This document shows, one piece after another, positions 7,014-23,715 of a DNA stretch of 64,000 nucleotides. The position numbers and the translations under genes were made by a program. Position 1 is the first letter of the stretch. The number at the start of each line of letters is the position of its first letter. Below the pieces are notes generated by a model. That model searched no databases. It had not been told where the DNA came from and saw nothing but the letters and a program-made list of their open reading frames with translations. Source of the DNA: Parabacteroides sp. PM6-13 (GTDB lineage Bacteria > Bacteroidota > Bacteroidia > Bacteroidales > Tannerellaceae). Where the stretch lies: assembly GCF_029892605.1 (NCBI RefSeq), contig NZ_JARXWF010000008.1, forward strand, positions 1 through 64,000, written 5' to 3'.

Positions 7014-8300
7014 ATGGAAACAAGAAAATGGCATTACGAAACACTGCAGCTTCATGCAGGACAAGAAACACCCGACACTGCTACCGGCGCACGGGCGGTC
7101 CCTATCTACCAGACTACCTCCTATGTTTTCCACGATTCGGCGCATGCCGCCGCCCGGTTTGGGTTGAGCGACGCGGGTAATATCTACGGACGCCTGACCA
7201 ATCCTACCCAGAGCGTTTTCGAACAACGGATGGCCGCGCTCGAAGGGGGTGTTGCCGCCCTGGCTGTGGCCTCCGGAGCCGCCGCCCTCACCTATGCCTT
7301 TGAGAATATCACCCGGGCAGGCGACCATATCGTCTCCGCCAAGACCATCTATGGGGGCACGTTCAACCTCCTGGCGAACACCCTGCCCGCTTACGGAATC
7401 ACGACCACCTTCGTCGATCCCTCCGACCTCTCTCATTTCGAAGAGGCGATCCAAGAAAATACAAAGGCTGTCTTTGTGGAGACATTAGGCAATCCCCACT
7501 CCAATATCATCGACCTGGAAGCAGTGGCAACCATCGCCCACAAACACCATATTCCCTTGATTGTCGATAATACGTTCGGCACGCCCTTTCTGATTCGACC
7601 CATCGAGTGGGGAGCGGATATTGTCGTACATTCGGCCACAAAGTTTATAGGCGGCCACGGCTCTTCCCTGGGTGGGGTAATCATCGATGCCGGCCGGTTC
7701 GACTGGAGCGCCACCGGTAAATTCCCGCAGCTGACGGAGCCCGACGCCAGTTACCACGGGCTCCGTTTTGTCGAAGCAGCCGGAGCGGCAGCCTACATCA
7801 CCCGCATCCGGGCCATCCTGCTCCGTGATACGGGAGCAGCCATCAGTCCCATCAATGCGTTTATTCTGTTGCAAGGCCTGGAAACGCTTTCGCTCCGGGT
7901 GGAGCGGCATGTGGAAAATGCCCTGGCAGTCGTCCATTTCCTAAAAAACCATCCGAAAGTAAAACGGGTGAACCACCCCGTCCTGCCCGAGCATCCGGAT
8001 CATCACCTGTACGATCGTTATTTCCCGCGCGGTGCAGGCTCCATCTTCACCTTCGAAGTAGCGGGAGGGCAAGAGGAGGCACATCGTTTCATCGACAGCC
8101 TGGAAATCTTCTCCCTGTTAGCCAATGTAGCAGATGTGAAATCGCTGGTGATTCATCCGGCCACCACCACCCATTCGCAACTGAGTGAAGCGCAACTGGC
8201 CGAGCAGGGCATCACACCGGGCACGGTACGCCTGTCAATAGGCACGGAACATATAGAGGATTTATTAGCCGATCTGGAACAAGGGCTGGCTGCCCTGTAA
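7014..8300 (+). CDS. metY: O-acetylhomoserine aminocarboxypropyltransferase / sulfhydrylase (PLP-dependent)
   Basis: 428 aa. Cys/Met-metabolism PLP enzyme family. N-terminus WHYETLQLHAGQ and the PLP-lysine region SATKFIGGHG. Confidence 0.85.
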   Translation: METRKWHYETLQLHAGQETPDTATGARAVPIYQTTSYVFHDSAHAAARFGLSDAGNIYGRLTNPTQSVFEQRMAALEGGVAALAVASGAAALTYAFENITRAGDHIVSAKTIYGGTFNLLANTLPAYGITTTFVDPSDLSHFEEAIQENTKAVFVETLGNPHSNIIDLEAVATIAHKHHIPLIVDNTFGTPFLIRPIEWGADIVVHSATKFIGGHGSSLGGVIIDAGRFDWSATGKFPQLTEPDASYHGLRFVEAAGAAAYITRIRAILLRDTGAAISPINAFILLQGLETLSLRVERHVENALAVVHFLKNHPKVKRVNHPVLPEHPDHHLYDRYFPRGAGSIFTFEVAGGQEEAHRFIDSLEIFSLLANVADVKSLVIHPATTTHSQLSEAQLAEQGITPGTVRLSIGTEHIEDLLADLEQGLAAL

Positions 8301-8307
8301 GGCCGCC

Positions 8308-8865
8308 CTATTTCACCTTTCCCGGATTGCGGGCGATATAGTCTTTCCAGCCGGTATATTTCTTGTCGGAGACTGGGTTGTTGGCCTGCAGGTAATGGCA
8401 GACAGCCGCCGCCAGGCCGTCGGTCGCATCCAGTTCGGGAATCATCGATTCGTTGGGGATATGCAGGATCCGTTGCAACATAGCCGCCACCTGCTCTTTA
8501 GCGGCTTTCCCGTTGCCGGTGATAGCCATCTTGATCTTCAATGGGGCATATTCAAAAATAGGGATATCCTTCGCCAGCGCTGCCGCCATGGCTACGCCCT
8601 GCGCACGTCCCAATTTCAGCATACTCTGCACGTTTTTCCCATAAAAGGGCGCTTCGATAGCCAGTTCGTCGGGATGATACTCATCAATGAGCGCCGATAC
8701 GCGTTCGAATATCTTCCGCAACCGCAGGTAATGGTCGTCGTATTTATTGAGCTGAAGCACCCCCATGACGATCAGTTGCGGACGGTTACCGGTCACTTTC
8801 AATAGGCCGTATCCCATCACAATCGTTCCCGGGTCGATGCCCAATATGATGCGTTCCTTACTCAT
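8308..8865 (-). CDS. ruvC: crossover junction endodeoxyribonuclease RuvC
   Basis: 185 aa. [17 protein letters not shown]-terminus and RNase-H-like catalytic acidic residues. Confidence 0.9.
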
Positions 8866-9178
8866 GCGCCCAGTCTATTTCATCCAACAGGGTAGTAAAG
8901 CCCACGATCTTACTGCCAAAGCGTTCGATCAGCTTTTGATGCAACATATTACCTTCTCCTTCCAGCCAATATTGCAGGGTCTCAATATTTTTCACATGAA
9001 ACTGAACAGAATAACTCTCGCCTTCTCCCTCCTCACTCATCTGAATCACCCGGCGCAAACAGGGAGCATGAAGGAAACCGCTGGCTGCCGCCTGCGGAAT
9101 ATAAATCTTTCGAAGATGCAAAAGAGCCTCCTCCAGAATCTCTTTCTCTATATGAAAAGTGGTATTATAAACTATCAT
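8858..9178 (-). CDS. small conserved hypothetical protein overlapping the ruvC start
   Basis: 106-aa ORF with an 8-nt overlap onto ruvC, suggesting an operon. Confidence 0.45.
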
Positions 9179-9328
9179 GGTGTCTATGCGCTATCTTTCC
9201 CACAAAGGTAGTGAATTAACCATCGCACCGCAACGTCTGAGGCAAACTCAAAAAAAATATACCTTCGCGAAACAAAAACCATGTAATATAAGAAAAATAA
9301 CTATATTTGCACCGCAAACGACCGATAT

Positions 9329-9402
9329 GGGGCATTAGCTCATCTGGCTAGAGCGTTAGACTGGCAGTCTAAAGGTGATCGGTTCGAGTCCGATATGCTC
9401 CA
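9329..9402 (+). tRNA. tRNA-Ala (anticodon GGC)
   Basis: Manual cloverleaf. Acceptor GGGGCAU/AUGCUCC, D-stem GCUC/GAGC, anticodon stem UUAGA/UCUAA with loop CUGGCAG, T-arm AUCGG-UUCGAGU-CCGAU. CCA not encoded. Confidence 0.85.
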
Positions 9403-9407
9403 CAAAT
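9391..9407. repeat. attL core (17 bp cgatatgctccacaaat) overlapping the tRNA-Ala 3' end
   Basis: Identical 17-mer recurs at 23669..23685 in direct orientation. Confidence 0.8.
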
Positions 9408-9566
9408 AAGGCTAAGTATTAGCGAGTTACAAAATTTACACCCAGATTTACACCCATAAATGTAGATTTGGGTGTTCTTTTTGAATAAAAATCCCCCGAA
9501 CCTCAACTGAAATCCGGGGGCAACCTGTCGTTTCAACAAAAATGTTGAAGCGTACAATGGCTTCTG

Positions 9567-9836
9567 TTAGTTCTCAATCTGCTTATCGATCTCTTCTTCT
9601 GCCCTATCAAAGAAGAAAACACCTATCAGTTCCGCTATATCAGTCCCGAACTCGCATAAGGTGTCGCTTATGTTGCCGAGCTTCTCGGTGCGTTTAATAT
9701 AAGGCTCTAACTCTTCTGTGTCCATAAGTGCATTTACTTTACTACGTGCTTCTTTTAACGCTATAATCACTTCGAGTAATCCGGTATGCACAGCTTCGAT
9801 CTTTACTTTGTCTATGTCTATGTCTATTGTTTTCAT
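9567..9836 (-). CDS. hypothetical small protein (element-borne)
   Basis: 89-aa ORF overlapping the next ORF by 4 nt in a compact operon. Confidence 0.4.
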   Translation of the reverse strand: MKTIDIDIDKVKIEAVHTGLLEVIIALKEARSKVNALMDTEELEPYIKRTEKLGNISDTLCEFGTDIAELIGVFFFDRAEEEIDKQIEN

Positions 9837-10069
9837 ATTGTTTCATCTATTTGCTTTTCAAATCTATACCCTGCTACCGACCCAATAAATTTAGCTACTT
9901 GGGCGATCCATTCATTTAGATCGGTGTGCATATCGCAGAGGTCTTCTTTACAATAGTCTATCTCTTGATCTTCTTGCAACTCCATAGCTTTGTTACGTGC
10001 TTTAATAATTAGCTCTTCCAACTCTAATAACCCCTCGTGTAAAAGGGTGTGTGAAATGTTTGTTTTCAT
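9833..10069 (-). CDS. hypothetical small protein (element-borne)
   Basis: 78-aa ORF with an overlapping stop/start. Confidence 0.4.
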   Translation of the reverse strand: MKTNISHTLLHEGLLELEELIIKARNKAMELQEDQEIDYCKEDLCDMHTDLNEWIAQVAKFIGSVAGYRFEKQIDETI

Positions 10070-10095
10070 ATCTATATCAATTAATTATTATTACT

Positions 10096-10278
10096 TTATT
10101 GTTCTTCGCTCAATATGCGGATGACCCACGCCAAGTCGCAAAGATTATCCATTTCTAACGGCAGGTTACCTGTTGCGTCCACCATTAGGTTGATTAAACC
10201 CTCTCTTATCTTCTTGACACTTCCTTTGTCTACGACTTCGGGATCAATCACTACTTTACCGTCAATTTCTTTTACCAT
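10096..10278 (-). CDS. hypothetical small protein
   Basis: 60-aa ORF. Confidence 0.3.
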   Translation of the reverse strand: MVKEIDGKVVIDPEVVDKGSVKKIREGLINLMVDATGNLPLEMDNLCDLAWVIRILSEEQ

Positions 10279-10426
10279 GATTATACGTTTTTAATGTTGT
10301 TTTTAATAGGGGGAAATCCCATCTTTAATTTATAAGCCATTTTAAGGCGATTTAAGACATTTTCTTTTCAAATCATACATCTATACCGTAAATCCGAAAT
10401 ATCACCGCAAATCGCCCCTAATAGCT

Positions 10427-10756
10427 TTAGATTGCTTGAATATTAAACCTCTTGAATGAGCGGAACGCTTGTTTCTCGGTGTCGAAGTAGGTAAAAAGTA
10501 GGTCGTTCTTTGCCCTCTGTGAGCCTTTCACCTCAACATTGATATACTTGTCAGACAAAGTGCCAAACGCCTGTCTAACCTCTCCGTTTACCTTCTGATA
10601 GTAGAACTTTACAATACCTGTTCTCATTGCTGCCGCCAGCTTGAAGTTCGCCCATGCTTTACGCAGGCAATCTGCGAAGGCTTCACCGGTTACTCGGAAT
10701 AAACGCCATGCCATTGCCATGATTCCTTTTAACTCGTTTCTTTTTGATGTACTCAT
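10427..10756 (-). CDS. hypothetical protein
   Basis: 109-aa ORF. Confidence 0.4.
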   Translation of the reverse strand: MSTSKRNELKGIMAMAWRLFRVTGEAFADCLRKAWANFKLAAAMRTGIVKFYYQKVNGEVRQAFGTLSDKYINVEVKGSQRAKNDLLFTYFDTEKQAFRSFKRFNIQAI

Positions 10757-10821
10757 AATCGTGTATATTAAAGTGTTTGTATTTAATTGACTCAGCCGAA
10801 AAGTCGGCTCAGTACTATGTA

Positions 10822-11115
10822 TTAATCCCCGAAGTAACGATACCGTGATCCTTCACCGTGATAGTAGTCGTATAGATCGACCTTTCTTGGTTGGGCGCAT
10901 AACGCTTTATATTCGTCAGATGCGTGCCACTTAGCTAATCTTTCTTTCTCTGCTTCGATAGCTGCCTGCTTAGCGTTGTAGATGATAGTTTCTTTCTCAA
11001 CCCACCAAGCTCTTGACAGGCACTCTCCGAAGTTCTTAGAATAACTTCCACGACGGTAGATGTTCCATGCCCGGATCATTACGGCTCTCTTGCTTATTTT
11101 TGATGTTGTTGTCAT
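10822..11115 (-). CDS. hypothetical protein
   Basis: 97-aa ORF. Confidence 0.4.
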   Translation of the reverse strand: MTTTSKISKRAVMIRAWNIYRRGSYSKNFGECLSRAWWVEKETIIYNAKQAAIEAEKERLAKWHASDEYKALCAQPRKVDLYDYYHGEGSRYRYFGD

Positions 11116-11140
11116 GTCTATACGTTTTAATGTTGATTTC

Positions 11141-11264
11141 TATACTGCAAATATACACTATAATGTATATCCAGCCAAACAAAAAGTGTTAAAAACATAC
11201 ATTATGATGAATTTATCTAAATATTATCTACATTATGATGAATTTTCAGTACATTTGCAGTATA
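11141..11264. promoter_or_regulatory. switch-like intergenic region: 12-bp inverted repeat (tatactgcaaat/atttgcagtata) flanking two 16-bp direct repeats (acattatgatgaattt)
   Basis: Direct repeats at 11199..11214 and 11230..11245. Inverted repeat arms at 11141..11152 and 11253..11264. Located between divergent transcription units upstream of an XRE regulator. Confidence 0.45.
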
Positions 11265-11281
11265 ACATTAAAATGTATAGT

Positions 11282-11524
11282 ATGAATTTAAGAGTAAAAG
11301 AAGTATGTAAAGAAAGAGGTATGACTATGGAGGCTTTAGCGAAGTTGTTAGATATTACTCCAAATACCCTCACTCGGAATATCAACGGCAACCCCACCAT
11401 TGAAACTCTCGGTAAGATCGCCTCTGCTTTGGAAGTCCCGGTAACGGATCTTTTCGAGCAACCGGCAAAAGATGTAGTGAACTGTCCGTATTGTGGTGGG
11501 AAGATAAAGATAGGGAAGGAATAA
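11282..11524 (+). CDS. XRE-family HTH transcriptional regulator with C-terminal zinc ribbon
   Basis: MNLRVKEVCKERGMTMEALAKLLDITPNTLTRNINGNPTIETLGKIASALEVPVTDLF is a Cro/C1-type HTH. CPYCGGKIK at the end. Start chosen at an internal Met of ORF 11060..11524. Confidence 0.6.
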   Translation: MNLRVKEVCKERGMTMEALAKLLDITPNTLTRNINGNPTIETLGKIASALEVPVTDLFEQPAKDVVNCPYCGGKIKIGKE

Positions 11525-11545
11525 TGATACATAAAGACAAATGAG

Positions 11546-11989
11546 ATGGTAGATCGAAATGAATTGCGAGTAGGGAATAGGTTAGCTTTAAGCCCGTCGG
11601 GCTTTTTTTGCGGCAATACAGTAATAGTTGATGAGATATTGAAAGATGGTATAAACTCATTAGAACTTGAATTTTACGACAGTAGCGAATTTTATAAATT
11701 CGAGAATTTATATCCTGTAGATATCTACCACTACGATTTGCGTGATTTTTGCGGATTTGATATTGTTGAATTTAACGAAGATGATTATGATGATGATGAA
11801 TATGTTCATTGTATACTAAAACATAGGGTTTCAGGGACATTAGTTCATGTTGTCCGTGACATATGGGAGGTGTATGTTCAAACTTCTGTTATCAATAAAT
11901 TATGGCGAAATGGAGCAATTAGGGTTAATAGTTTTCATCAATTAGAGAACGTTATTTTTGCTTTAACAGGTGTGGATATATCTGAATAA
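11546..11989 (+). CDS. hypothetical protein
   Basis: 147-aa ORF co-directional with the XRE regulator. Confidence 0.4.
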   Translation: MVDRNELRVGNRLALSPSGFFCGNTVIVDEILKDGINSLELEFYDSSEFYKFENLYPVDIYHYDLRDFCGFDIVEFNEDDYDDDEYVHCILKHRVSGTLVHVVRDIWEVYVQTSVINKLWRNGAIRVNSFHQLENVIFALTGVDISE

Positions 11990-12172
11990 TCAGTTAGACC
12001 CTCCAATATACTCTTCCAGAATCTTAGGCCGTCTAAATTGAGAAGTCTTTAGTGACATGTCGTTTCCACAGAATTGTGAAAGCGGGCCAAGGGTGTTAAA
12101 TTCTTTACGACCTATCAAAAAGAAAGGGCATCCCATCACAGAACACCCCTTAACGCTGAATCAAAGCACACA

Positions 12173-12364
12173 TCAATCGTCTACCTGTTCTGCCTTGTCG
12201 ATCACCTCAATGATAATATCTTCGCCGATATGGTCGCAAAACACCTGCTGTAATATCTTCCCTCTGCCATCCGTAGTGTTATCAATTACCGTGATAGTGT
12301 GCTGGTCTATCGGGTTGCCCTGAATGTGAGCAATGAGCCGCTTTACTTTCTCTTCACTTGCCAT
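12173..12364 (-). CDS. hypothetical small protein
   Basis: 63 aa, overlapping the upstream ORF. Confidence 0.3.
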   Translation of the reverse strand: MASEEKVKRLIAHIQGNPIDQHTITVIDNTTDGRGKILQQVFCDHIGEDIIIEVIDKAEQVDD

Positions 12365-12611
12365 CTTGCGCTGGTTTTATAACTTTCCATCCGAGTTTTT
12401 CAGACAGATCGTCAATTCTTGATTCTAATTCTTCATCCGTCAATCCTTCCAGTTCAAGAGCGGCAGCAATCTTCTTTGCCATACCTATTGGCATCGGTTT
12501 TAATCCGGTAAACGCTTCATACCACTCTGGAAACTCGCTCGTGTCCAAAACTCCAGTTGCCACAGATGACAACAATTTTGCTTTCTGTTCTTTTGATAGT
12601 TTAATCTTCAT
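12354..12611 (-). CDS. hypothetical small protein
   Basis: 85 aa, overlapping starts/stops in a minus-strand operon. Confidence 0.4.
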   Translation of the reverse strand: MKIKLSKEQKAKLLSSVATGVLDTSEFPEWYEAFTGLKPMPIGMAKKIAAALELEGLTDEELESRIDDLSEKLGWKVIKPAQDGK

Positions 12612-12936
12612 GATTCAAATTATTTAATGTTTGTATTCGCTCTGCCAGCCTATCCACAACCTCATCAGGAGCAGATAGTAACAGCTTCTCTAACTCTTTA
12701 TATTCGCAGGCAATCTGCGCATCAACACTCACAGACTGCTGCTTTGGCACAACGTACTGCATCAATTTCTCAAGTACCTGCACCCTGTCTTTAGGATCTA
12801 ACTCTTTCAAATCCTTTTCAAACTGCACTCGGTTACCATCAATAACCTGCTGAATCCAGCTTTTCAATTCCCCTGTTATCTTATTTGGCACTCCTTTAGG
12901 TCTGCCATTGGGGTTATTCGTCTGTCCTTTCTTCAT
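12601..12936 (-). CDS. hypothetical protein
   Basis: 111 aa. Confidence 0.4.
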   Translation of the reverse strand: MKKGQTNNPNGRPKGVPNKITGELKSWIQQVIDGNRVQFEKDLKELDPKDRVQVLEKLMQYVVPKQQSVSVDAQIACEYKELEKLLLSAPDEVVDRLAERIQTLNNLNHED

Positions 12937-13067: not shown

Positions 13068-13346
13068 CTAAACACCATTATCGTAGTACTGTTTTGCTTT
13101 TTCACGGTCTCGGCAACATTTAGCCCACTTTCCAAAGTCTTCGTTCCCAGGATAGCGAACACACTTTTTGTCCGGCTGTTTATATTCGTTGCCAATCTTA
13201 CGCTTAAAAACTTCGTAGTATATCACGCTCGGATCAGCTTCTAACGTACGACTGTATAGATACATCTCTGTTGCCGGGTTATAGCCTTCTTGTCTGAAGG
13301 TATCGCCGAACTTTGTAAATTCTTTGGGTAGTTCTCTAATATTCAT
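13068..13346 (-). CDS. hypothetical protein
   Basis: 92 aa, immediately downstream of the giant ORF. Confidence 0.4.
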   Translation of the reverse strand: MNIRELPKEFTKFGDTFRQEGYNPATEMYLYSRTLEADPSVIYYEVFKRKIGNEYKQPDKKCVRYPGNEDFGKWAKCCRDREKAKQYYDNGV

Positions 13347-13396: not shown

Positions 13397-16300
13397 TTAT
13401 AAACCTAATCCTCCGCCTTTCATCTTCACCTCTATTGACCCCTTTAATGAGTTGGCAGCACTATCGGTGTTTCCGGCAATAGCTTTTCCAGATTCCGCTA
13501 TGCCTTCTAACTGTGATAGCCGTTCGGTGTTAGCTACTATCGAGCGATTAGCCTCAGCTATCTCCTTTGACGTAGAATTGAGTTGTATCATATTCTGTTC
13601 GATCTTGCTGTTCAAATCCCGGATAGCAGTAAGCTCGCCGAAACTATTAGTCATAATATCTCGGTTCAACTGAAAACCATCCTTTACAGAATCTATTGCT
13701 GTCATGTCAATCCCAAACCCTTTTCCACCAAATATTTGCTGCATTATTCCATTCATCTCAGCATTGATCTTTTCTGAATCGACCTTTAGACCTTCTTTAA
13801 GTATATCTCGAATGCTTTCAGCAGCATTTGCGCCACGCTCCAGAGCAACCCTTCCTGCTCCCATCTGCCCGGCTAATAGATCAATACTTTGTTGATTGGC
13901 TTTCCCTAATGCTCCGGCAAGTGAGTTATCAGACGTTGATGCCTCATTTTTGAGTCTATCTATTTCCCATCCATTTGCTTTCGCCAACTCATCCCAATCT
14001 TTGGCTATCGACATCCAGCTATCAACCACAGTAGGAAGGCTATCGAAAATACCAGAGGTTATAGAAAGAAGTTCTTCTTGTACCGCCTTAGGATCGCCTA
14101 ATGAAAATGCGTCTCTAATCTTTGGTTTATATTGCTCAAGGTACTCTCCTAAGATCATTTCCTGTAGAAGGGCTTTCCCGAGTGCATCAATCACCTTTAG
14201 TCCTGAATCCTCAAATAAATCCCAGGCGTCTGACCCATTACGAACAGCGTCAAATATTATATCAGTCAAATCAGAAGCTATCCCGCCAAAGGTTGATTCG
14301 ATGTGATCATCAAGGACTTTCATCGCTTCATCGTAAGCCTCTTTCTGATCAATAGCAAGTGCAAGCTGTGTGCGTAATTCTTTGGATATTTCTTTGTGGG
14401 TTTCCAGGAACAGCCTTGCTGCTTCAACATCAAACTCACCATTCAAATCACCTCCCCATATTTCAGGAGCAAAATCAAACAAGGTGGTGAATTTATCTTT
14501 TGAGCCTTGCTTATACCATACGTGTTTTGCGGTCTGAATAAGACTTCCTTGCAGTACTGTCATTTCACGCTTCATGGCGTCAATCAAAACTTCATCTGCA
14601 TAGGTTCTGCTCCAATTGGCCAAACTAAAGCCCTGATAGCTATCCATCCCGTACGGCTTTATATTGAGTTTTTCATTTACAAAATCATTGTAATCACCAA
14701 TGGTCTTTTTATAGCTATCGTAAGCCTTGATCGCCTGTTCAATACCACGCTTTCCGAAAAATGAAGAGTATTCCTCTTCGAGATAGTTTCGCTCTGACAA
14801 AAGAAGATTGAACCGATGCTGCCAGTCGTATTGTTCATTCTGCATTCTCCGGATTCGCTCTTCCTCTTCTATCAATCCGTTAAATACCGATGATCCTATA
14901 CCGGCTACCGCTCCGGCAACAGCACCCCAAATACCGCCTGATTTAGCACCTGAGATGGTCTTCTCTAATATGTTCCCCCAATCTTTTAAAAGGCTTGTAA
15001 AATCTGATAGACTTTGATCTCCGGTTGCATCTGCCAGTTGTCCAATCATATCAGATAACTGAGACACTCCCTGCACTGCCTCCAATGCTCCATCATAGAT
15101 GTAGTTCAATCCTTCCTGCCGGGATGTTTCCGCATTATCTTCAAACAGTTTCTTTTTTGCCTTGTCTGCCTCCGTAAAGGCTTTCTCTGATAGTTTGGCA
15201 GATTCCTTTAGTTTCTGCAAACCTTTAACAATGCCGGAGAACGGGTAATTAGTTCTGCTGTCTAACTCATTTTGTTTATCGATCAGTGCATTGTAAATGT
15301 CTTTTATTTCGTCAAATGGTAAGCCTTTGAGTAGGTCGCTTGGATTGTCAATAAGTCTTTTCGTTTCATCGATTATGCTTTTGAGCTGTTTACGGCTCAT
15401 ATTAGCAGCATTGGAGAATAGCTTCGTGAAAGTGTCAGAGGCCTTACTCAATTCGTTGAACTCAGAGCTGTTGATATCTTTAAGCCCTTTCTCATACTGC
15501 TTCTTCGCTACTACTAATGCCCGGTTTATTTCCTCTGCGTTTTCTTCTGTACGCTGGCTATTCAAGAAGGAAACAGTATCGTTGTACTCTTCTTCCAGCT
15601 TCTCACGCTGCTTAGCAAAGTCCTGGTATTTGTCGAGAACAGAATCAAGCAGATCCTTTTCACTTTTCGCCCGGTCTGCGGTGTTGGCTTGAAACAGACC
15701 GGCAAGGAGATTTTGCTTTTCTTCCGGAAGGTCTGCAATGACATTTACAGAGGAAGTGAATGTCATTCCCTTATCTTTCCAATCAGGGTTAGCGGCTTCC
15801 CATGTTTTACGCTCAAGTTCCTGCTGTTGCTTGATAAGAGCGGCTCCACGCTTCATGATCTCCAATTCCCGTTTGTCATAATCGAGATTGATTTGAGCAA
15901 GAGTTTTATCTGTACCTTCTTCCATGAGGTTGATACGTTGCTGCTGTAATTCGTGTTCAGCCTCTCGCTCTTCAACAGCAAGCTTCTTGCTCATTTCCTC
16001 AATCTCCCGGAGACGATCAGCAGTTTCAGATTTTAGCCGGTTGGTATCTAAAGCAGACTTTTTAGCGTCTTTATCCTGCCCGGTCATGGTTTCCAGCTTT
16101 TTTTCTGCCTCTTGCAGGGCTTTAACCTCATCCTCAATAGCTTTCGCAAAATCAAATTGTTCTCCCGGTTTTAATTCGATAGGGGCTATTCCTTTTCTGA
16201 GATTCTCAATATTTTTTTTCAGGTTATCGATTTCCCCCTTGGTATCAGCAAGCTGTTTGTCGAAATCCACGAAAGGAGCTACTTCCTTTTGATCCTCTTT

Positions 16301-18148
16301 CTTTGAGAGTTTCCCGTAGATTGATTCCAGGTCACTTATTTCATTATCGAGTATCCCTTTTGATTTGCGGATATTCACAACAAGCAGATCGATAGGGTTT
16401 GTTTGGTATGAAGAAGCACCTCCAAACATTCCTTGTGATACATAAACGGTCTTGTTGAATTTATCAATAGCATCCTGTACCTCTTTGCTAAACTCACTTC
16501 CGGAGCTTAATGATTCTTTCAGGGAATCAAGTAAAAGTGTTCCTTGTGCTTCTCCAAACTCTTTATTGAACGATTTGCGGATCTTATCAATGTTCTTCCC
16601 CCATTGCTCGGTGTAATTATCCACAGCAGATTGTGTGCCTTTTTCAATGGCTCTGTCTTTGGCAGATTGGATAGCGGCTTCTGATATGGCTTTATAAGCT
16701 CCTTCTATGTCTTTGAGGGTGCGTATCTCTTCATTTAAGCCATCAAGGTAGTTGCCGTATTTATTGATGATATTGTCCTTTGCTTTTTGATATGCCTCCG
16801 TCCCTTCCTTAGCGTTTTTGAGCCTCCCGAAAAGAATATCAATATTTACAGACTCTTCTTCTGTACTCTTGTTGAAGTCTTTCATTGTCTCCGCAAGCCT
16901 CTTTTGCGATTTCTCTGCCTCGGTTTGATATGTGCTCAATTTGTAGATGCCATAACCAAGACCTACAACTGCTGCTGTAAGCACAACATAAGGATTGGTA
17001 ACTAATAATGCTGCTGAGGCTTTTAATGATTTGGATAGGCTGGCCTGCGCAAGAGTAAACATCTTTGTTCGAGCGGCGGCAATGGCTTCTGCATTGGAAA
17101 GTTGAATACTGGCAGCGGCGGCAAGATGCTTCTCGACTACGGCCTGACGCATGATCTTTGTATTGAGGGACTGCAAAGCGGAGATCGAAATAAGAAGAGC
17201 TTTGTAGCTGCCATAGACAACAACTAATTCCGCTATTGTCTTGCCGATTATCTCGTAGTTCTCAACCATGAGAGTAGCACTCTCTATCGCCTTACCGATA
17301 ACACCTTCCGAGCTTTGACCAATCTCATTAAACATCACCTGAATGTTATCCTTAAGTGCTTCGATCTGCCCTGTAATGGCTTTAGATTGGTTCTCCATCA
17401 ATCCGCCATACATACCACCGGAAGATGTCATGTTCTTAAAGGCCTGTTCAACCTCTTTGAATCCAACCTTCCCGGCAGAGACAAGATCATTTACTTGACC
17501 TTCTGCAACTCCTAATACATTTGCAAGCTCTTTATAGATGGGGATACCACGCCCGGCAAACTGGCGTATATCCATGAGATAAGCCCTGCCTTGCATACGG
17601 AGTGTACCGTACAAATAAACGATGTCTCCGATAGACTGACCTGTTCCGGCTGCCACGTCGCCAAGCATTGTCATCTCCTGAATCACGCTATCCGCTTGCG
17701 ATCCGTATGCTATAAGCTGCTTTGCTGCTTCGGCTGCTGATTGCAAACCGAAAGGAGTACGTGCGGCAAAGTCTGTTAAGTCTCCAATGAGAACTTTAGC
17801 TTTATCACCACTCTTTAGCATAGTACCAAAGGCGATTTCTAATTGCTGGAACTCGCCACGAACATTTACCACTTCTTTTGCAAAAGCTGTGAGGGCTGCT
17901 GTACCACCAATACCGGCTAATGCTTTTTTGAAGTTACTATTAATGGATGCGCCAGCTTTAGAAGCTTCTTCCGCTAAACGGTTAAACTTCCCTTCAAGGG
18001 ATTGCAATTGCTTATCAAGCTTATTGAATGCTTTCGGATCGGCGGCCTTATCCATGCCTGAAAGTTTTGTTTTCAGGTCATCTATTTCTTTTTTTAGCTT
18101 CTTCAATGCCTCAAAATCGGCGCCTACACGAAAATATAATCCACTCAT
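13397..18148 (-). CDS. phage tail tape-measure-domain protein (1583 aa, long coiled-coil)
   Basis: N-terminal region (EFQQLEIAFGTML...LTDFAARTPFG...LIAYG) matches the conserved tape-measure domain of TP901-like phages. The remainder is an extended Lys/Glu-rich coiled coil with two hydrophobic segments. Confidence 0.75.
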   Translation of the reverse strand: MSGLYFRVGADFEALKKLKKEIDDLKTKLSGMDKAADPKAFNKLDKQLQSLEGKFNRLAEEASKAGASINSNFKKALAGIGGTAALTAFAKEVVNVRGEFQQLEIAFGTMLKSGDKAKVLIGDLTDFAARTPFGLQSAAEAAKQLIAYGSQADSVIQEMTMLGDVAAGTGQSIGDIVYLYGTLRMQGRAYLMDIRQFAGRGIPIYKELANVLGVAEGQVNDLVSAGKVGFKEVEQAFKNMTSSGGMYGGLMENQSKAITGQIEALKDNIQVMFNEIGQSSEGVIGKAIESATLMVENYEIIGKTIAELVVVYGSYKALLISISALQSLNTKIMRQAVVEKHLAAAASIQLSNAEAIAAARTKMFTLAQASLSKSLKASAALLVTNPYVVLTAAVVGLGYGIYKLSTYQTEAEKSQKRLAETMKDFNKSTEEESVNIDILFGRLKNAKEGTEAYQKAKDNIINKYGNYLDGLNEEIRTLKDIEGAYKAISEAAIQSAKDRAIEKGTQSAVDNYTEQWGKNIDKIRKSFNKEFGEAQGTLLLDSLKESLSSGSEFSKEVQDAIDKFNKTVYVSQGMFGGASSYQTNPIDLLVVNIRKSKGILDNEISDLESIYGKLSKKEDQKEVAPFVDFDKQLADTKGEIDNLKKNIENLRKGIAPIELKPGEQFDFAKAIEDEVKALQEAEKKLETMTGQDKDAKKSALDTNRLKSETADRLREIEEMSKKLAVEEREAEHELQQQRINLMEEGTDKTLAQINLDYDKRELEIMKRGAALIKQQQELERKTWEAANPDWKDKGMTFTSSVNVIADLPEEKQNLLAGLFQANTADRAKSEKDLLDSVLDKYQDFAKQREKLEEEYNDTVSFLNSQRTEENAEEINRALVVAKKQYEKGLKDINSSEFNELSKASDTFTKLFSNAANMSRKQLKSIIDETKRLIDNPSDLLKGLPFDEIKDIYNALIDKQNELDSRTNYPFSGIVKGLQKLKESAKLSEKAFTEADKAKKKLFEDNAETSRQEGLNYIYDGALEAVQGVSQLSDMIGQLADATGDQSLSDFTSLLKDWGNILEKTISGAKSGGIWGAVAGAVAGIGSSVFNGLIEEEERIRRMQNEQYDWQHRFNLLLSERNYLEEEYSSFFGKRGIEQAIKAYDSYKKTIGDYNDFVNEKLNIKPYGMDSYQGFSLANWSRTYADEVLIDAMKREMTVLQGSLIQTAKHVWYKQGSKDKFTTLFDFAPEIWGGDLNGEFDVEAARLFLETHKEISKELRTQLALAIDQKEAYDEAMKVLDDHIESTFGGIASDLTDIIFDAVRNGSDAWDLFEDSGLKVIDALGKALLQEMILGEYLEQYKPKIRDAFSLGDPKAVQEELLSITSGIFDSLPTVVDSWMSIAKDWDELAKANGWEIDRLKNEASTSDNSLAGALGKANQQSIDLLAGQMGAGRVALERGANAAESIRDILKEGLKVDSEKINAEMNGIMQQIFGGKGFGIDMTAIDSVKDGFQLNRDIMTNSFGELTAIRDLNSKIEQNMIQLNSTSKEIAEANRSIVANTERLSQLEGIAESGKAIAGNTDSAANSLKGSIEVKMKGGGLGL

Positions 18149-18170: not shown

Positions 18171-18431
18171 TTACTTTTTTATTCCATCCCCGAACAGTTC
18201 TTTGCCCGGGTTCGCCTCTTTCCAGTGATTGATCCCGTCTAACCCCGCATCGCTGGAAAAGTAATCTTCCGTTGACTTGTAGCCCATGAGTTGGAATACA
18301 TCGTCGGTAGAGAACAGCATCTCACCGGTAACTTTATCTTTGGTCGCTCTAATCGTTTTGCCCTTCGCCACTAAAAAGAGATAGTGGCGCAGCTTATCGT
18401 CTTCTTTATACTCTATTAAAATTGGTTTCAT
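18171..18431 (-). CDS. hypothetical small protein
   Basis: 86 aa, directly upstream of the TMP gene. Confidence 0.4.
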   Translation of the reverse strand: MKPILIEYKEDDKLRHYLFLVAKGKTIRATKDKVTGEMLFSTDDVFQLMGYKSTEDYFSSDAGLDGINHWKEANPGKELFGDGIKK

Positions 18432-18450
18432 ATCTTTATCTGTTTGATTG

Positions 18451-18693
18451 TTAGTTTAAACTCCCACTCTCATTTAGCATATCCAAAACCACTTGCTTAT
18501 TGATTTGGCGATCATGTATAGCATCATTTTCGTTTAAAATTGTTTTTGCCAAATCAAATGCATCATTCGTCCGACCTTCGGTTATGGCCTGCATGATCTT
18601 GTAGGCGTTTGATACGTTCCGGCAGATCTCTCCGAATGTCACCTCTAAGGGTATATCCACTAATCTGATTTTTATTTCTTCTTCTGTTTTCAT
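18451..18693 (-). CDS. hypothetical small protein
   Basis: 80 aa with a 4-nt overlap onto the upstream ORF. Confidence 0.4.
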   Translation of the reverse strand: MKTEEEIKIRLVDIPLEVTFGEICRNVSNAYKIMQAITEGRTNDAFDLAKTILNENDAIHDRQINKQVVLDMLNESGSLN

Positions 18694-19193
18694 TTTGTGT
18701 CCTTTTTTATAGTGTGCAAACTGTGCAATTCTTTCAAGAAATCATCATAGCATTTCACCACAGCGTAATGCCCTCCGGCAGCTATGATTTGTTCCTGCAC
18801 TTGCTTCTGAATGTCGCTTTGTTTATCTCGCCCTATCTTGATCTCGAAATTGTAAACTTTGCCATTGTGGGTTACTTGTACATCGGCAATCCCTTTAGTG
18901 CTGCCTGATTTACGCCACATCTTTAGGCGGGCATCATATTGACCTTGTGAGTTCTGCCGTTGGTAAAAAGCTCCGTTAATCTTCGACCATATAGACAGGC
19001 ATTCGGTTAGTCCGTTCGCTGTATCGTCTCTAAATTTCTTTACAAACCGGCAGTTCTCAGGAATGGAACTATTACGATACTTAAACTCGAAATAGTCCTT
19101 CTCCAGTCGCTTAACTGATTCCGGCTTCTGATACCGGGCCACTACTTTACGAGGCTTCTTTTCTTCTCTTGGGATAAAGTCTTGCATATTCAT
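18690..19193 (-). CDS. VRR-NUC domain nuclease (PD-(D/E)xK)
   Basis: GIADVQV...FEIKIGRDKQSDIQKQ fits the VRR-NUC GxPD / ExK / D..S..Q pattern. 167 aa. Confidence 0.5.
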   Translation of the reverse strand: MNMQDFIPREEKKPRKVVARYQKPESVKRLEKDYFEFKYRNSSIPENCRFVKKFRDDTANGLTECLSIWSKINGAFYQRQNSQGQYDARLKMWRKSGSTKGIADVQVTHNGKVYNFEIKIGRDKQSDIQKQVQEQIIAAGGHYAVVKCYDDFLKELHSLHTIKKDTK

Positions 19194-20205: not shown

Positions 20206-20484
20206 TTATTTATTGCTGTTCCTCCCATCCCAATACTCTTGTATTTTCTTCCTATTGTCCTCTCGTTTCTCTTCATACTTCTTGTTGTCTTCATCTATAA
20301 ACGCTTGGAGCAAGTGAAAAACCACCGAAAGTTTCTCCGTGAAATCAGAAGGGAGTTCACTGCGCCATTGGTAGGCCATAATAGCCATAAATATCTTGCC
20401 ACGTTCGGAATCTGTTAGTATGGAGAGAATTGTCTCAAATTGCTCACGAACGAGTAAGGGTGGTTGTTTAGGTTTATTTGCCAT
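20206..20484 (-). CDS. hypothetical protein
   Basis: 92-aa ORF. Confidence 0.4.
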   Translation of the reverse strand: MANKPKQPPLLVREQFETILSILTDSERGKIFMAIMAYQWRSELPSDFTEKLSVVFHLLQAFIDEDNKKYEEKREDNRKKIQEYWDGRNSNK

Positions 20485-20485: not shown

Positions 20486-20767
20486 TTATCGCCCTCCTTT
20501 AACCTTAAAGTACCACACTTTATTTTCTTTACTTATTGGGCAAATTCCCTGATGCGTCCGCTCGATCAGTCCGTCATCTTCCAACTGCCGGATAAGTCTT
20601 GTACAGTTAGGCCGGGTTATGCCTGTCGCCTCTGCTGCGTGGTAAGTAGTAGAATGATTGTCAATAAAGAAGGCAAATAAGGCTTGCTTTTGCAAACGGA
20701 TTCGTTTATCTTTGTGGTGATCTTCTTGCCCTTGCTGCCCGGCGGGGCTTTCTTTTTTTAGTTTCAT
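20486..20767 (-). CDS. HTH DNA-binding protein (winged-helix/MarR-like)
   Basis: FFIDNHSTTYHAAEATGITRPNCTRLIRQLEDDGLIER is an HTH. 93 aa. Confidence 0.5.
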   Translation of the reverse strand: MKLKKESPAGQQGQEDHHKDKRIRLQKQALFAFFIDNHSTTYHAAEATGITRPNCTRLIRQLEDDGLIERTHQGICPISKENKVWYFKVKGGR

Positions 20768-21066
20768 GCCCTGCGCCCTCCTTCTTTACGTCCAGCTAAC
20801 TCAAGTGCTAGCTCGGCATCAACTACAATCTTGCGCCCTATCTGCTTAATTGCTTTGTCTATTTTCCCGCTTGCCTTGATCCGGCTTGCGGTAGGAATAG
20901 AACAGTTAAATAGTCGGGCAATTCCAGATACACCATAGACATATTGTTTCTCTTGTGCTGTTTGAGCATTCACGTTCTGTCTAAAGTTTCCATGCTCCTG
21001 CAAGAAAAGAAACTCTTCACCAGTCATTTGCCAAATTGGTTTGGCTCTTAATTCTACAATATTCAT
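20764..21066 (-). CDS. excisionase-like HTH protein (MerR/HTH_17-like)
   Basis: VYGVSGIARLFNCSIPTASRIKASGKIDKAI is a phage excisionase-type HTH. 100 aa, overlapping the upstream ORF. Confidence 0.5.
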   Translation of the reverse strand: MNIVELRAKPIWQMTGEEFLFLQEHGNFRQNVNAQTAQEKQYVYGVSGIARLFNCSIPTASRIKASGKIDKAIKQIGRKIVVDAELALELAGRKEGGRRA

Positions 21067-21274: not shown

Positions 21275-22237
21275 TTATTTTGATTCCTCGTAGTATTTGG
21301 TGATTGTGTTTTTAAAGGTTTTTGGGAAGCTATCTTCTAATAGTTTAATCTTTTTCACATTATTACTGTCTTTATTTACTTGTGGAAACACCCCTGAATC
21401 TATTAGTGGCATTACCGTTTTTGCGATAATATCCGCCGTTACACCTTTCTTTATTTTTAGTTTATCAAGAGTATATCCATGTTCTAAAAATTGCTTTATG
21501 GTTTCTTTGTTGTCATCACAAATAAATTGTAACTCAGTAATATGCTTTGATATATCCCTTGGCTCTTTCTTTGACTTAGGTAGAACCCTGTATTTGTCAT
21601 ATGATCCGAAGTTTTCTTCATAGTCACTATTTTCTTTTAAGATGTCTACTATGTCGATATCGAAATGAGCATAAATTGATGAAATGTCATAAAGAATTTG
21701 TTCTATGTCATTTGTTAAAAAAGTAACGTGATATCCGTTTTTTTCTAATGTTTCCAAACTGAGATAGGAGCAATATAATAGAGCATCTAACTGCTTTGCA
21801 AATAATTTAGCATATAAGATGCGATTGTGATGAGATTCTATTTTTAGCAGTTTCTCTGTTAGGTTTTTCTCCAATGCTAACCCTACTTTATAATTGAGAC
21901 CCTCGACAATTTTCCCCTCTATGTAGTAGAATCTTGATTTAGCATCCTCTATTTTCTTACGGAATGCGCTGGGCTTTTTTTTGCTTACGTCTGGCATTCG
22001 ATGTTTGGCTTCGTCCGAGTCAAGATATTTAAGATGTTCGTCCATGTTGAGAAGCTTCCACAATACGTCTGGATTTTTCATAAAAAAAACATAGTGCTGT
22101 ATTTGCTTATCCAGTAGCTTTACAATCGTGCGATAAAGGAAGCCATAAAATCCCTTTTGGTTTTTATAACGATCATAATGAAAGGCGTCATCGATTAGAA
22201 CATTTATTTCATCAAATACATATTCTAAATATTTCAT
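21275..22237 (-). CDS. AT-rich hypothetical protein (element cargo gene next to integrase)
   Basis: 320 aa, Lys/Ile/Tyr-rich with no recognisable motif. Clearly lower GC than its neighbours. Overlaps the integrase stop by 4 nt. Confidence 0.5.
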   Translation of the reverse strand: MKYLEYVFDEINVLIDDAFHYDRYKNQKGFYGFLYRTIVKLLDKQIQHYVFFMKNPDVLWKLLNMDEHLKYLDSDEAKHRMPDVSKKKPSAFRKKIEDAKSRFYYIEGKIVEGLNYKVGLALEKNLTEKLLKIESHHNRILYAKLFAKQLDALLYCSYLSLETLEKNGYHVTFLTNDIEQILYDISSIYAHFDIDIVDILKENSDYEENFGSYDKYRVLPKSKKEPRDISKHITELQFICDDNKETIKQFLEHGYTLDKLKIKKGVTADIIAKTVMPLIDSGVFPQVNKDSNNVKKIKLLEDSFPKTFKNTITKYYEESK

Positions 22238-23565
22238 ATTCCATCAAATTTACTCATTGCACTTGCTTTTATCTCATCCGCTATGTCTATGTACGGCTTC
22301 ATTGCTTTGTAGTCGCTATGCCCTGTCCACTTCATTACAACTTGTGCCGGGATACCTAATGACAACGCATTACAGATAAATGTTCGTCGTCCGCAATGCG
22401 TACCGATTAAAGCGTACTTGGGTGTAACCTCATCTATACGTTCATTTCCTTTATAGTATGTTTCCCGGATTGGTTCGTTTAGTTCTGCCAGCTCACAAAG
22501 CTCTTTTAGGAACTCATTCATCTTTTGGTTACTGATAACCGGCAGCACTTTACTATTAGGTAAATGCACGTCTTTGTACTTCTCCAGTATTGCCCGGCTA
22601 TGACTATTCAGCTCAATGATGAGGCTATCGGCTGTTTTTACGGTTGTTATTTCGATATGGTCCTCTTTCACATCACTACGTTTGAGGTTGTACACATCGG
22701 AATACCGTAGGCCGGTGAAGCATTGGAACAGGAATACATCCCGGACACGTTCAAGGTATTGTTTACCTTCCGGTATCTTATATTCTCTAAGCTGGGTAAG
22801 TTCTTTCCATGTGAGGAAGATTATCTTCTTTTTAGTCGTTTTCAATTTCGGCTTGAACGCCTCGAAAGAAGTGTTTTCGCAATGTCCTTTAGAAACTGCC
22901 CAGCGAAGGAACCATTTTAATAGATTGATCTGTTTTTCTATGGTGCTATTCCTCATCCCCACACTATAAAGGTAAGACACATATTCTCGAAGTACATTTT
23001 CATTCAACCTATCAAAGGTTAATCCAGGATCAAAATCTTTTATGTGTCCTTTTACTACATTGAGTTTTTTTATAGTTCCTAATGCCCAGTTGTTCTGCTC
23101 CCCACATTCAGCCATAAAGAGGTCAAAGTACAGATGAATGTTTTTTTGTTCTTGTCTATCATCGCCATTTTTCTTCCCAAAAGCATCTTTTAATTGATCC
23201 GGTGTCGGCGTCGTATCCTGTACCTCAAACTCCTTAAAGACAGCCTCTATTTTAGAATATAGATCCGATAGATCCGAGTTGATTTCGGACGCACTTTGTT
23301 TAAGTTTATTTGTACATCCTTTTTTTACTCGCTGTTTATCCAAATCCCATTTTGGCGCATCAATTCGGTAGCCGGTGGTAAACTCTATTCGGTTGCCACA
23401 ATAGACTACACGCATACGGATAGGCACATTCTCTGTAATAGGAATACCGTTTTTCTTTCGGCTTTCAAGTGAAAAGACTATATTTCGCTTTATATTCATG
23501 GGTGCAAAAGTGGGTGTAAAATTAAATCCACACCCAAAAGTACACCCATTTTTTGAGATATGCAA
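22234..23565 (-). CDS. int: site-specific tyrosine integrase
   Basis: 443 aa. N-terminal SAM-like and core-binding region plus a C-terminal catalytic domain (HCGRRTF, RYSDVYNLK) typical of Bacteroides phage/CTn integrases. Adjacent to attR. Confidence 0.9.
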   Translation of the reverse strand: MHISKNGCTFGCGFNFTPTFAPMNIKRNIVFSLESRKKNGIPITENVPIRMRVVYCGNRIEFTTGYRIDAPKWDLDKQRVKKGCTNKLKQSASEINSDLSDLYSKIEAVFKEFEVQDTTPTPDQLKDAFGKKNGDDRQEQKNIHLYFDLFMAECGEQNNWALGTIKKLNVVKGHIKDFDPGLTFDRLNENVLREYVSYLYSVGMRNSTIEKQINLLKWFLRWAVSKGHCENTSFEAFKPKLKTTKKKIIFLTWKELTQLREYKIPEGKQYLERVRDVFLFQCFTGLRYSDVYNLKRSDVKEDHIEITTVKTADSLIIELNSHSRAILEKYKDVHLPNSKVLPVISNQKMNEFLKELCELAELNEPIRETYYKGNERIDEVTPKYALIGTHCGRRTFICNALSLGIPAQVVMKWTGHSDYKAMKPYIDIADEIKASAMSKFDGI

Positions 23566-23668: not shown

Positions 23669-23685
23669 CGATATGCTCCACAAAT
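23669..23685. repeat. attR core (cgatatgctccacaaat)
   Basis: Perfect 17-bp direct repeat of 9391..9407. Confidence 0.8.
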
Positions 23686-23715
23686 CATCAAAAAAGGAGG
23701 CTTTCTTTCGAAAGT

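Follow-up and report, generated by a model that had tools for sequence, protein, structure and literature searches.

The window analyzed here (64,000 nt; positions 1 to 64,000 of contig NZ_JARXWF010000008.1 of Parabacteroides sp. PM6-13) carries a gene for a tape-measure protein (TMP) on the minus strand at 13397..18148, an open reading frame (ORF) with an ATG start that encodes 1583 amino acids (aa), as the initial annotation had called it. Inspection of its surroundings places the gene in a discrete integrative element of 14,278 bp, of which it makes up about one third (33%). Like a phage satellite, the element has its own integrase and attachment (att) sites, where a 17-nt direct repeat, CGATATGCTCCACAAAT, bounds it at 9391-9407 and 23669-23685. 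The predicted attP junction of the element would read …AAAGGTTAAAGAG-CGATATGCTCCACAAAT-AAGGCTAAGTATTAGCG…. GC content is 0.43 for the TMP gene, 0.39 for the remaining element, and 0.48-0.49 for the host flanks, and the genes to the left, encoding RuvC and a DUF4286 protein, are host genes. We judge it somewhat likely that this 14.3-kb element of Parabacteroides, with the TMP gene it carries, is an integrative phage satellite that builds chimeric tails.

Profile searches each assign the 1583-aa protein to the tape-measure family. Pfam TMP_3 (PF20155) matches aa 91-277 (E=4e-23, 82.5 bits against a cut-off of 41), NCBIfam TIGR02675 reaches 30.3 bits against a cut-off of 21.35, and phrog_9959 (tail length tape measure protein) matches in three stretches (E=6e-216). 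The N-terminal tape-measure domain noted in the initial annotation is thereby confirmed, where the matching family is PF20155; the suggested PF10145 gave no match on this protein. A solved chain named 'probable tape measure protein' (9ki1_g) matches aa 47-252 (E=1e-4), and an identical 1583-aa protein is recorded as 'tape measure domain-containing protein' from Parabacteroides sp. PFB2-12 (Tannerellaceae). The protein is colinear with phage TMPs along its entire length and, as judged from these sequence comparisons, is a genuine, full-length TMP.

ORFs of the window were searched with Pfam, NCBIfam, and PHROGs profiles and by phmmer with the proteins of phage loci. Reading along the minus strand, the genes follow in the order integrase, w320, DUF3853, winged-HTH, DUF6291, primase, 167-aa nuclease-like protein, ORF80, ORF86, TMP, w92, w111, w85, w63, and then a hairpin. 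Beyond the hairpin lie the plus-strand HTH_3 repressor and w147, divergent from a second minus-strand operon of w97, WYL_2, w60, w78, and w89, closed by another hairpin (9520-9493). The features are listed below from left to right, with loci used for comparison given by L numbers.

9329..9403, plus strand: tRNA-Ala(GGC), the integration target (ARAGORN), with its 3' end overlapping the att core
9391..9407: attL core CGATATGCTCCACAAAT, direct repeat at the end of tRNA-Ala
9567..9836, minus strand: w89, last gene of the WYL_2 operon, followed by the hairpin at 9520-9493; homolog of an 88-aa ORF of the TMP-less element L203 (E=7e-25)
9833..10069, minus strand: w78, homolog of an 81-aa ORF in the early region of the L001/L070 prophage (E=2e-5)
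10427..10756, minus strand: WYL_2 (PF10902) protein (Pfam E=6e-21; phrog_1086), common to related phages
10822..11115, minus strand: w97, first gene of the operon divergent from the repressor; homologs in elements L006 and L061
11060..11524, plus strand: HTH_3 (Cro/CI-type) repressor (Pfam E=1e-11; HTH at aa 79-131), with homologs in all related elements and phages; translation probably begins close to 11270
11198-11214 and 11229-11245: two exact 17-nt direct repeats TACATTATGATGAATTT, 31 nt apart, in the divergent intergenic region between w97 and HTH_3; candidate operators
11546..11989, plus strand: w147, in the same orientation as the repressor; weak homolog in phage L148 (E=4e-5)
12123..12151, minus strand: terminator-like hairpin closing the long minus-strand operon (hairpin prediction)
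12173..12364, minus strand: w63, homolog of the 68-aa ORF 3' of w111 in L203
12354..12611, minus strand: w85, overlapping w111 and w63 (ORF list); no family match
12601..12936, minus strand: w111, small basic protein resembling DUF5681 (Pfam, 25.3 bits, slightly under the cut-off of 27.5); candidate for a small terminase (TerS)
13068..13346, minus strand: w92, directly 3' of the TMP gene; no informative match
13397..18148, minus strand: TMP, 1583 aa (PF20155, TIGR02675, phrog_9959, 9ki1_g)
18171..18431, minus strand: ORF86; no family match, and not chaperone-like by hhalign
18451..18693, minus strand: ORF80; no family match
18690..19193, minus strand: nuclease-like protein, 167 aa; weak match to phrog_93 (endonuclease; E=3e-7) and a homolog in L006
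19190..20191, minus strand: primase with BT4734-like_N and PriCT_2 domains (Pfam), 333 aa; phrog_15962 DNA primase (E=9e-31)
20206..20484, minus strand: DUF6291 protein (Pfam E=2e-15), also in elements L010 and L061
20486..20767, minus strand: winged-HTH (MarR-like) protein (Pfam)
20764..21066, minus strand: DUF3853 protein (Pfam E=2e-37), also in element L004
21275..22237, minus strand: w320, 320 aa, adjoining the integrase; confident all-alpha model, with generic helical matches alone
22234..23565, minus strand: tyrosine integrase, 443 aa (Pfam Arm-DNA-bind_5, Phage_int_SAM_5, Phage_integrase; phrog_1)
23669..23685: attR core CGATATGCTCCACAAAT, direct repeat just past the integrase gene

Several of these genes suggest how the element might function. 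The BT4734-like_N/PriCT_2 primase, recognized by homology, would give it a replication function of its own, as is expected of a satellite, and a VRR-NUC-like motif was noted by eye in the 167-aa protein. The DUF3853 gene occupies the position held by an HTH_17 gene in relatives L203 and L206, which suggests an excisionase role for its product. The HTH_3, WYL_2, and w78 genes have homologs in phages with related TMPs, where the WYL_2 gene shares 63% identity over 70 aa with the copy in prophage L001 (tblastx). A PADLOC search returned generic HTH and PrimPol models alone and no known defense system.

To look for remnants of a phage genome, the proteins of 10 phage loci were compared by phmmer with every stop-to-stop ORF of the window that reaches 50 aa. 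Genes for capsid, portal, large terminase, tail tube, and baseplate were all absent from the 64 kb by this search. Apart from two moron-like ORFs that lie elsewhere in the window (26478-27238), its matches all fell within the element, on the TMP, WYL_2, HTH_3, w78, w147, and the integrase. That is to say, the element lacks most virion genes, as a satellite does, and the structural or lysis remnants that mark a defective prophage did not appear. The TMP gene does not lie inside a tail gene cluster; its neighbors are the primase, the nuclease-like ORF, ORF80, ORF86, w92, and w111. The description of the gene in the initial annotation as an orphan TMP without tail genes therefore holds for the window. 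Its statement that both flanks carry only ORFs of 92 aa or less was wrong, where the upstream flank contains the 167-aa ORF (start ~540 bp from the TMP start), the 333-aa primase, the 320-aa protein, and the 443-aa integrase, and the downstream flank contains the 111-aa protein. The orphan point stands because none of these larger ORFs is a tail gene.

The two ORFs upstream of the TMP gene (18171..18693) had also been proposed to encode a tail chaperone made by -1 frameshifting, and no such signature was found. ORF86 lies in the +1 frame relative to ORF80, and the single good slippery heptamer, T_TTA_AAC, falls at the last codons of ORF80, where the -1 frame adds 10 residues. When ORF80, ORF86, w167, w92, and w85 were compared by hhalign with an alignment of 42 phage chaperones, all probabilities stayed below 2%. 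Together, the frames, the 10-aa extension, and the hhalign result led us to reject a G/GT-type frameshift chaperone upstream of the TMP. In the gut element L211, a 233-aa protein (8281-8982) encoded directly 5' of the TMP gene matches the tail-chaperone family with an hhalign probability of 74% (E=3e-5). [quoted passage not shown]

The closest homologs of the TMP (P0002, P0003, and P0005) are found in ordinary siphophage-type structural clusters. The gene order in these clusters is scaffold-like, major head protein, connectors, 187-aa tube-like, 143-aa chaperone-like, TMP, 310-aa distal tail protein (Dit)-like, and large tail proteins. One such prophage, seen in a full contig, adds to these genes an integrase, a portal of the SPP1 type, and a large terminase (Terminase_6N), and the Tannerellaceae prophage L001 has portal, TerL, major capsid protein, tube, chaperone, and Dit genes. 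Homologous TMPs in Bacteroidales phages, for which the initial annotation had proposed a check, are thus present, L001 being an example. Bacteroidota siphophage TMPs, such as those of the IMGVR_UViG_3300011852_000023 prophage and Hankyphage p00, belong to the same family and length class as the window TMP and show colinear homology to it. The difference is one of setting, where a siphophage TMP gene sits between the tail chaperone and distal tail protein genes, whereas the window TMP gene sits between replication genes and a TerS-like gene. Related Bacteroidota siphophages have TMPs of 1220-1818 aa, and the nearest phage TMPs measure 1585 and 1595 aa, so that a 1583-aa TMP is normal for this group and the very long tail suggested by the initial annotation would be ordinary here.

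Alignments along the TMP indicate a mosaic protein. Overall, it is 43% identical to P0002 of prophage L001 across 96% of its length. Within this span, aa 1-900 share 60-72% identity with the L001 TMP (1585 aa), and aa 23-938 share 52% identity with the TMP of phage L148. The remainder, aa 900-1583, is about 20% identical to the L001 TMP and finds its best match in the TMP of another element (L006, 56% identity), with 33% identity to the TMP of phage L073. That the first 900 aa stay so close to the TMPs of local phages would suit a protein that has to cooperate with the chaperone and tube proteins of a helper. The divergent C-terminal third, common to another element, may be of advantage to the satellite or may mark the true helper type.

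A neighbor-joining tree built on the conserved N-terminal TMP region shows the TMPs of such elements to be polyphyletic, each placed beside TMPs of phages from the same host lineage. The window TMP pairs with those of the Tannerellaceae prophages L001 and L003; L031 falls next to prophages of Pedobacter, L041 next to those of Spirosoma, and L010 next to those of Paludibacter.

Inspection of the related phages also reveals varied positions for a regulatory module that contains HTH_3. In L202/L070 (IMGVR_UViG_3300011852_000023, the prophage with the closest TMP), an HTH_3/WYL_2/Bro-ANT module lies between the portal plus a 314-aa gene and the scaffold/capsid genes, and the terminase-portal block is split from the other head genes because this module intervenes. 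In L122 (5794-9441), L134 (5301-9471), and L149 (7629-9901), a module interrupts the tail operon midway and separates the tail chaperone gene from the TMP gene. It consists of an opposite-strand HTH_3 repressor, small ORFs, and a KilA-N/ANT or pRha/ANT antirepressor, with WYL_2 in L122 and L134, and resembles an immI-like secondary immunity region. In L150 (JGI 3300042615 contig), a 1454-aa TMP homolog follows an 868-aa tail-protein homolog and is flanked by minus-strand portal, terminase, and 1994-aa genes.

The layout seen in the window recurs elsewhere. A scan of one genome per species with the TMP alignment yielded 65 loci, to which two IMG/VR scans were added; fetched loci were described by simple ORF calls, with labels at phmmer sensitivity. 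Most of the TMP-bearing loci scanned are prophages. In at least eight independent lineages, the TMP gene stands in a TMP-only layout of integrase, replication genes, TMP, HTH_3, and usually WYL_2, without capsid or tail genes. These elements come from Bacteroidales, Sphingobacteriales, and Cytophagales, and from Flavobacteriales through the ambiguous locus L026. The elements other than that of the window are as follows.

L004: 15.7 kb, target tRNA-Cys, att repeats with the integrase at the far end; carries P0006
L006 (Tannerella metagenome-assembled genome, MAG): 14.3 kb, target tmRNA, att repeats with the integrase at the far end
L010 (Paludibacter MAG): 12.4 kb, target tRNA-Leu, att repeats with the integrase at the far end
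L031 (Pedobacter sp. N36a): 17.6 kb, target tRNA-Arg, att repeats with the integrase at the far end
L041 (Rudanella): TMP-only element, partial
L061, the same as L114 (Parabacteroides sp. PF5-9): TMP-only element
L210 and L211: human-gut proviruses, TMP-only elements

Between host genes, L004 has the order HTH_17, DnaB helicase, TMP, small ORFs, HTH_3, WYL_2, DUF3853, and integrase. The 1244-aa protein of L210 and L211 is without a TMP_3 domain, and its C-terminal two thirds are 30-45% identical to TMPs of gut Bacteroides phages. The TMP ORFs of the elements are intact at 1244-1583 aa, and the TMP is kept while the replication modules vary among primase, DnaB, and AAA_25. Two further loci, L026 (Apibacter) and L209, were left ambiguous as TMP-only elements, as inverted tail-tip genes adjoin their HTH_3/WYL_2 modules. 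Here, Dit-like and 1100-aa tail-tip genes (L026 8116-13187; first 3 kb of L209) are inverted relative to the tube/TMP genes, an arrangement that could represent tandem elements or a rearranged prophage.

A second gene, w111, links the window element to small elements that have no TMP. The w111 protein has a basic GRPKG..NK.T arm followed by helices, and its family comprises 3643 proteins, each some 95-113 aa long. Its closest relative on a long contig (73% identity) is found in L203, a ~17-kb element with integrase, HTH_17, Toprim/DnaB_C replicase, Fic, w111, w63, HTH_3, WYL_2, and w89 genes and no TMP gene. A very widespread ~8-kb element adjoining tRNA-Leu in Phocaeicola contigs (L206-L208, about 4100-11960) is likewise TMP-less, with genes for an integrase, HTH_17, AAA_25, a DUF6371/zinc-ribbon primase-like protein, RusA, and a w111-like protein. 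It is listed for 209 collection blocks and is a candidate for a minimal gut Bacteroidales satellite. The w111 family marks related small integrative elements of 8-17 kb. Since the backbone exists without a TMP in L203 and L206-L208, it represents an element type of its own and not a deletion product, and the TMP is an accessory module of a broader family of small elements.

The position of w111 homologs in phages suggests a possible packaging role. In at least nine viral contigs, a member of the family lies directly upstream of the large terminase gene (phmmer), overlapping it by 10-34 nt in five of the nine. Pfam recognizes Terminase_6N, 6C, or 3 in all five contigs tested (L252, L261, L228, L249, and L230), and four further contigs, in addition to the nine, are candidates for the arrangement by size and position. 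Portal-sized genes come after the terminase in the viral contigs with this pair, and in the annotated circular genome MW202710 the w111 homolog is gene 1 and overlaps the gene labeled 'terminase large subunit'. By gene position, the family is thus a candidate small-terminase family, and w111 a candidate TerS.

Members of the w111 family were also seen in other phage settings. A large group of 50-68-kb gut phages encoding a ~2700-aa protein (L212-L288, many of them IMG/VR gut contigs) has its DUF5681/w111-like gene isolated on the opposite strand, next to a ~490-aa integrase-like gene and some 2 kb away from the end of the contig. Bacteroides phage BF1-TP2 is an example, where the gene (gp71; L290 6965-7261) is found close to an integrase and regulatory genes.

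To the right of attR, a separate low-GC island spans 23700-32000. Its genes encode an SPFH/Band_7 protein that carries several zinc ribbons (25086-26612), a DDE_Tnp_1_6-type IS transposase (27645-29306), a Gp49/HigB-like toxin (30342-30722), and an HU-HIG protein (31224-31817). The two moron-like ORFs of the island (26478-27238) are homologs of 85-aa and 116-aa accessory genes in gut Bacteroides phages. Just beyond attR, a 62-nt direct repeat (94% identical; 23711-23772 and 24269-24330) brackets a 116-aa ORF (23920-24270) and may have been left behind by a further insertion into this tRNA hot spot.

Taken as a satellite, the element would sit silent at the 3' end of tRNA-Ala under its Cro/CI-type HTH_3 repressor, probably acting on the two 17-nt repeats. 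Growth of a helper siphophage, from the Bacteroidota group that has 1200-1800-aa TMPs and the same HTH_3/WYL_2 module, would derepress the element. It would then excise through its integrase, perhaps aided by the DUF3853 protein, and replicate by means of its own primase and the nuclease-like protein. As a small terminase, w111 would steer the large terminase of the helper to satellite DNA, and the satellite TMP would be built into tails whose other components (tube, chaperone, distal tail, and hub) come from the helper, leading to chimeric tails. One possible benefit is a DNA-entry or tail-core protein that escapes what targets the helper TMP, such as superinfection exclusion or tail-assembly interference; another is competition with helper tail assembly. 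The initial annotation had suggested a satellite-encoded TMP that re-sizes helper tails. The satellite part of that suggestion is favored by the att-bounded element, its recurrence in at least eight lineages, the TMP tree, and the DUF5681-like gene, whereas tail re-sizing is unsupported because the TMP (1583 aa) matches the nearest phage TMPs in length (1585 and 1595 aa). More tentatively, and with less than even confidence, we propose a phylum-wide family of Bacteroidota satellites in which the TMP is the sole virion gene, repeatedly swaps modules with helper TMPs, and supplies the tail core and DNA conduit while the helper supplies the rest, with the purpose of entering helper-excluding cells or sabotaging helper tails.

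A number of observations weigh against the satellite reading. The dependence on a helper, the packaging, and the incorporation of the TMP into tails are steps that we infer, and excision, replication, and encapsidation of the element are likewise predicted from its genes. A search with the L001 capsid protein returned 107 proteins, none of them named from PFB2-12, a result limited by missing names and 90% clustering. The C-terminal 680 aa of the TMP, which are expected to dock in the helper tail tip, are ~20% identical to the phage that is closest by the N-terminus, and the window element has no recognizable tail chaperone, unlike PLEs. Gene position is the sole basis for assigning w111 as TerS, and in the large gut phage group described above the family stands beside an integrase and not beside a terminase. 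The AF2 model of w111 is weak (three long helices, pLDDT 72, pTM 0.31), Foldseek against the PDB and a PDB sequence profile search gave no match, and hhalign found no similarity between w111 and the 199-aa putative TerS of the L070-type prophage. Finally, some of the supporting loci are MAG contigs, and the IMG/VR copies (L114, L210, and L211) are gene-trimmed provirus calls, of which L210 and L211 are without terminal repeats.

Decay of a siphophage prophage, in which head and tail genes were deleted and the TMP ORF survived by chance, was raised in the initial annotation. It would agree with the homologs of TMP, HTH_3, WYL_2, and w78 in true prophages of the same host family, with the capsid-protein search that found no helper, and with a packaging step deduced from genes. 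We nevertheless regard it as highly improbable. The 4.75-kb ORF is intact in AT-rich DNA along with the att sites and integrase, and phmmer detected no fragments of other structural genes in the 64 kb. Random decay is also very hard to reconcile with a TMP-only layout that recurs in at least eight lineages with intact ORFs of 1244-1583 aa, all the more as replication modules and tRNA/tmRNA targets differ among them. The backbone itself (integrase, xis-like gene, replicase, w111, HTH_3, and WYL_2) occurs TMP-less in L203 and L206-L208, and the related L070 prophage has a different putative TerS. A dominant-negative role as a tail-assembly decoy makes different use of the mosaic structure: the element would be a mobile island or a satellite, and the TMP would titrate the chaperone, tube, or hub of infecting phages, block their tails, and protect the host population, with no part in infectious particles. 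A highly phage-like N-terminal 900 aa joined to a divergent tip-docking part would suit such a protein, as would the failure of hhalign to recognize a cognate chaperone in the element. Interference with tail assembly is moreover a known strategy of defense systems and satellites, as described in PMC11364771 and for Rta in PMC11838301. A short decoy would suffice, however, whereas a full-length, phage-sized TMP is kept in every lineage. The C-terminal part is conserved as well (56% with the L006 element, 33% with phage L073), the candidate TerS points to particle transfer, and PADLOC gave no defense match, so that we consider a decoy unlikely.

The remaining alternatives concern what moves the gene. 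The block of integrase, small DNA-binding proteins, and BT4734-PriCT primase, together with the target at a tRNA 3' end, resembles the excision module of the Bacteroides elements NBU1 and NBU2. The element could on this basis be an NBU-like mobilizable element (IME) that spreads by conjugative mobilization and carries the TMP as phage-derived cargo with another role, and IMEs are common in Bacteroides (PMC11389934). We hold this to be very unlikely, where searches of Pfam, NCBIfam, and PHROGs with the element ORFs found neither a relaxase nor a Mob protein, and the model of w320, the sole unassigned large ORF, is all-alpha and suggests no relaxase-like fold. The late region is phage-related rather than conjugation-related, with a TMP that follows local phage TMPs and a w111 family associated with phage terminases. 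Alternatively, the HTH_3/WYL_2 module and the TMP may form a selfish cassette that recombines between phages and elements, with the window element as one carrier. The mosaic TMPs speak for such a unit, as does the HTH_3(-)/WYL_2/antirepressor module found directly upstream of the TMP in L122, L134, and L149. In the window, however, the module lies downstream of the TMP with the w92-w63 genes between, and L070-type prophages carry it between portal and scaffold genes, so the linkage of HTH_3/WYL_2 to the TMP is not constant. We think a cassette quite unlikely as the main explanation, and it is compatible with the satellite reading.

If such a phylum-wide satellite family exists, tail-core replacement would be a general satellite strategy that evolved independently of the Vibrio PLEs, and lysogens of the helper whose superinfection exclusion targets the TMP would be an example of excluding cells. 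Few phage satellites are known from Bacteroidota, a dominant gut phylum, and before 2025 TMP genes were not known from any satellite. A literature search found, among the papers it covered, neither a Bacteroidota satellite that carries a TMP nor a DUF5681-marked element family. A large unrecognized satellite population, marked by the DUF5681-like gene, would then exist in gut and environmental Bacteroidota, and the signature of integrase, replicase, DUF5681-like gene, and HTH_3/WYL_2, with or without the TMP, could be used to find satellites in gut metagenomes. Should the elements travel in phage particles, gut Bacteroidales would have a route of gene flow that has been overlooked. The mosaic TMPs could further serve as a natural experiment, where the N-terminal 900 aa follow local phages while the C-terminal third is common to elements, and their comparison could reveal which parts of a TMP contact which tail components.

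Comparison with known systems places the window element among several types. It shares with NBU1/NBU2 integration at a tRNA 3' end and the set of integrase, small DNA-binding proteins, and BT4734/PriCT primase; unlike them, it shows no relaxase, and its late region consists of the TMP and a terminase-associated small protein. Phage-inducible chromosomal islands (PICIs), including the Staphylococcus aureus pathogenicity islands (SaPIs), measure 12-18 kb against helpers of ~40-50 kb and encode an integrase, a primase or replicase, a repressor, and a TerS that redirects helper packaging. The window element resembles them in size, integrase, own primase, repressor, and candidate TerS, and differs in that its integrase is not adjacent to the repressor and no genes for capsid-size redirection were recognized. 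A TMP is not known from any PICI.

Closer in this respect are the EPIPs, satellites of the Mycolicibacterium aichiense prophage HerbertWM, which a December 2025 preprint reports to encode a TMP and a small terminase, with an altered tail length (10.64898/2025.12.02.691453). EPIPs also carry head-to-tail adaptor, stopper, scaffolding, and capsid-related genes and a serine integrase, and their tails are longer than those of the helper. In contrast, the window element has the TMP as its sole virion gene and a tyrosine integrase, and its TMP is as long as those of related phages. In Vibrio cholerae, a 2025 study showed that every PLE encodes a TMP along with a chaperone, sometimes with a baseplate hub, which replace ICP1 proteins in chimeric tails, and predicted tmp genes were noted in some other putative satellites (PMC11838301). 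PLEs and the window element, a putative satellite, are both integrative, have their own TMP, and lack capsid or tail-tube genes. The helper of PLEs, ICP1, is a lytic myovirus and the PLE TMP has 582 aa, whereas the window TMP has 1583 aa and is of siphophage type. PLE proteins are 19-41% identical to those of ICP1, compared with 60-72% between the N-terminal 900 aa of the window TMP and phage TMPs. The joint presence of TMP and chaperone that characterizes PLEs does not extend to the window element, where the TMP is present and neither a chaperone nor a hub gene was recognized, and the PLE backbone and phylum are unrelated to those of the window element. The principle of a satellite-encoded TMP is thus already known; what is new is an unrelated backbone in another phylum, with a siphophage-type TMP of 1.2-1.6 kaa as the sole virion gene. 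The elements described here would extend the idea of chimeric tails to an unrelated phylum, to siphophage helpers, and to a minimal form in which the TMP alone is supplied.

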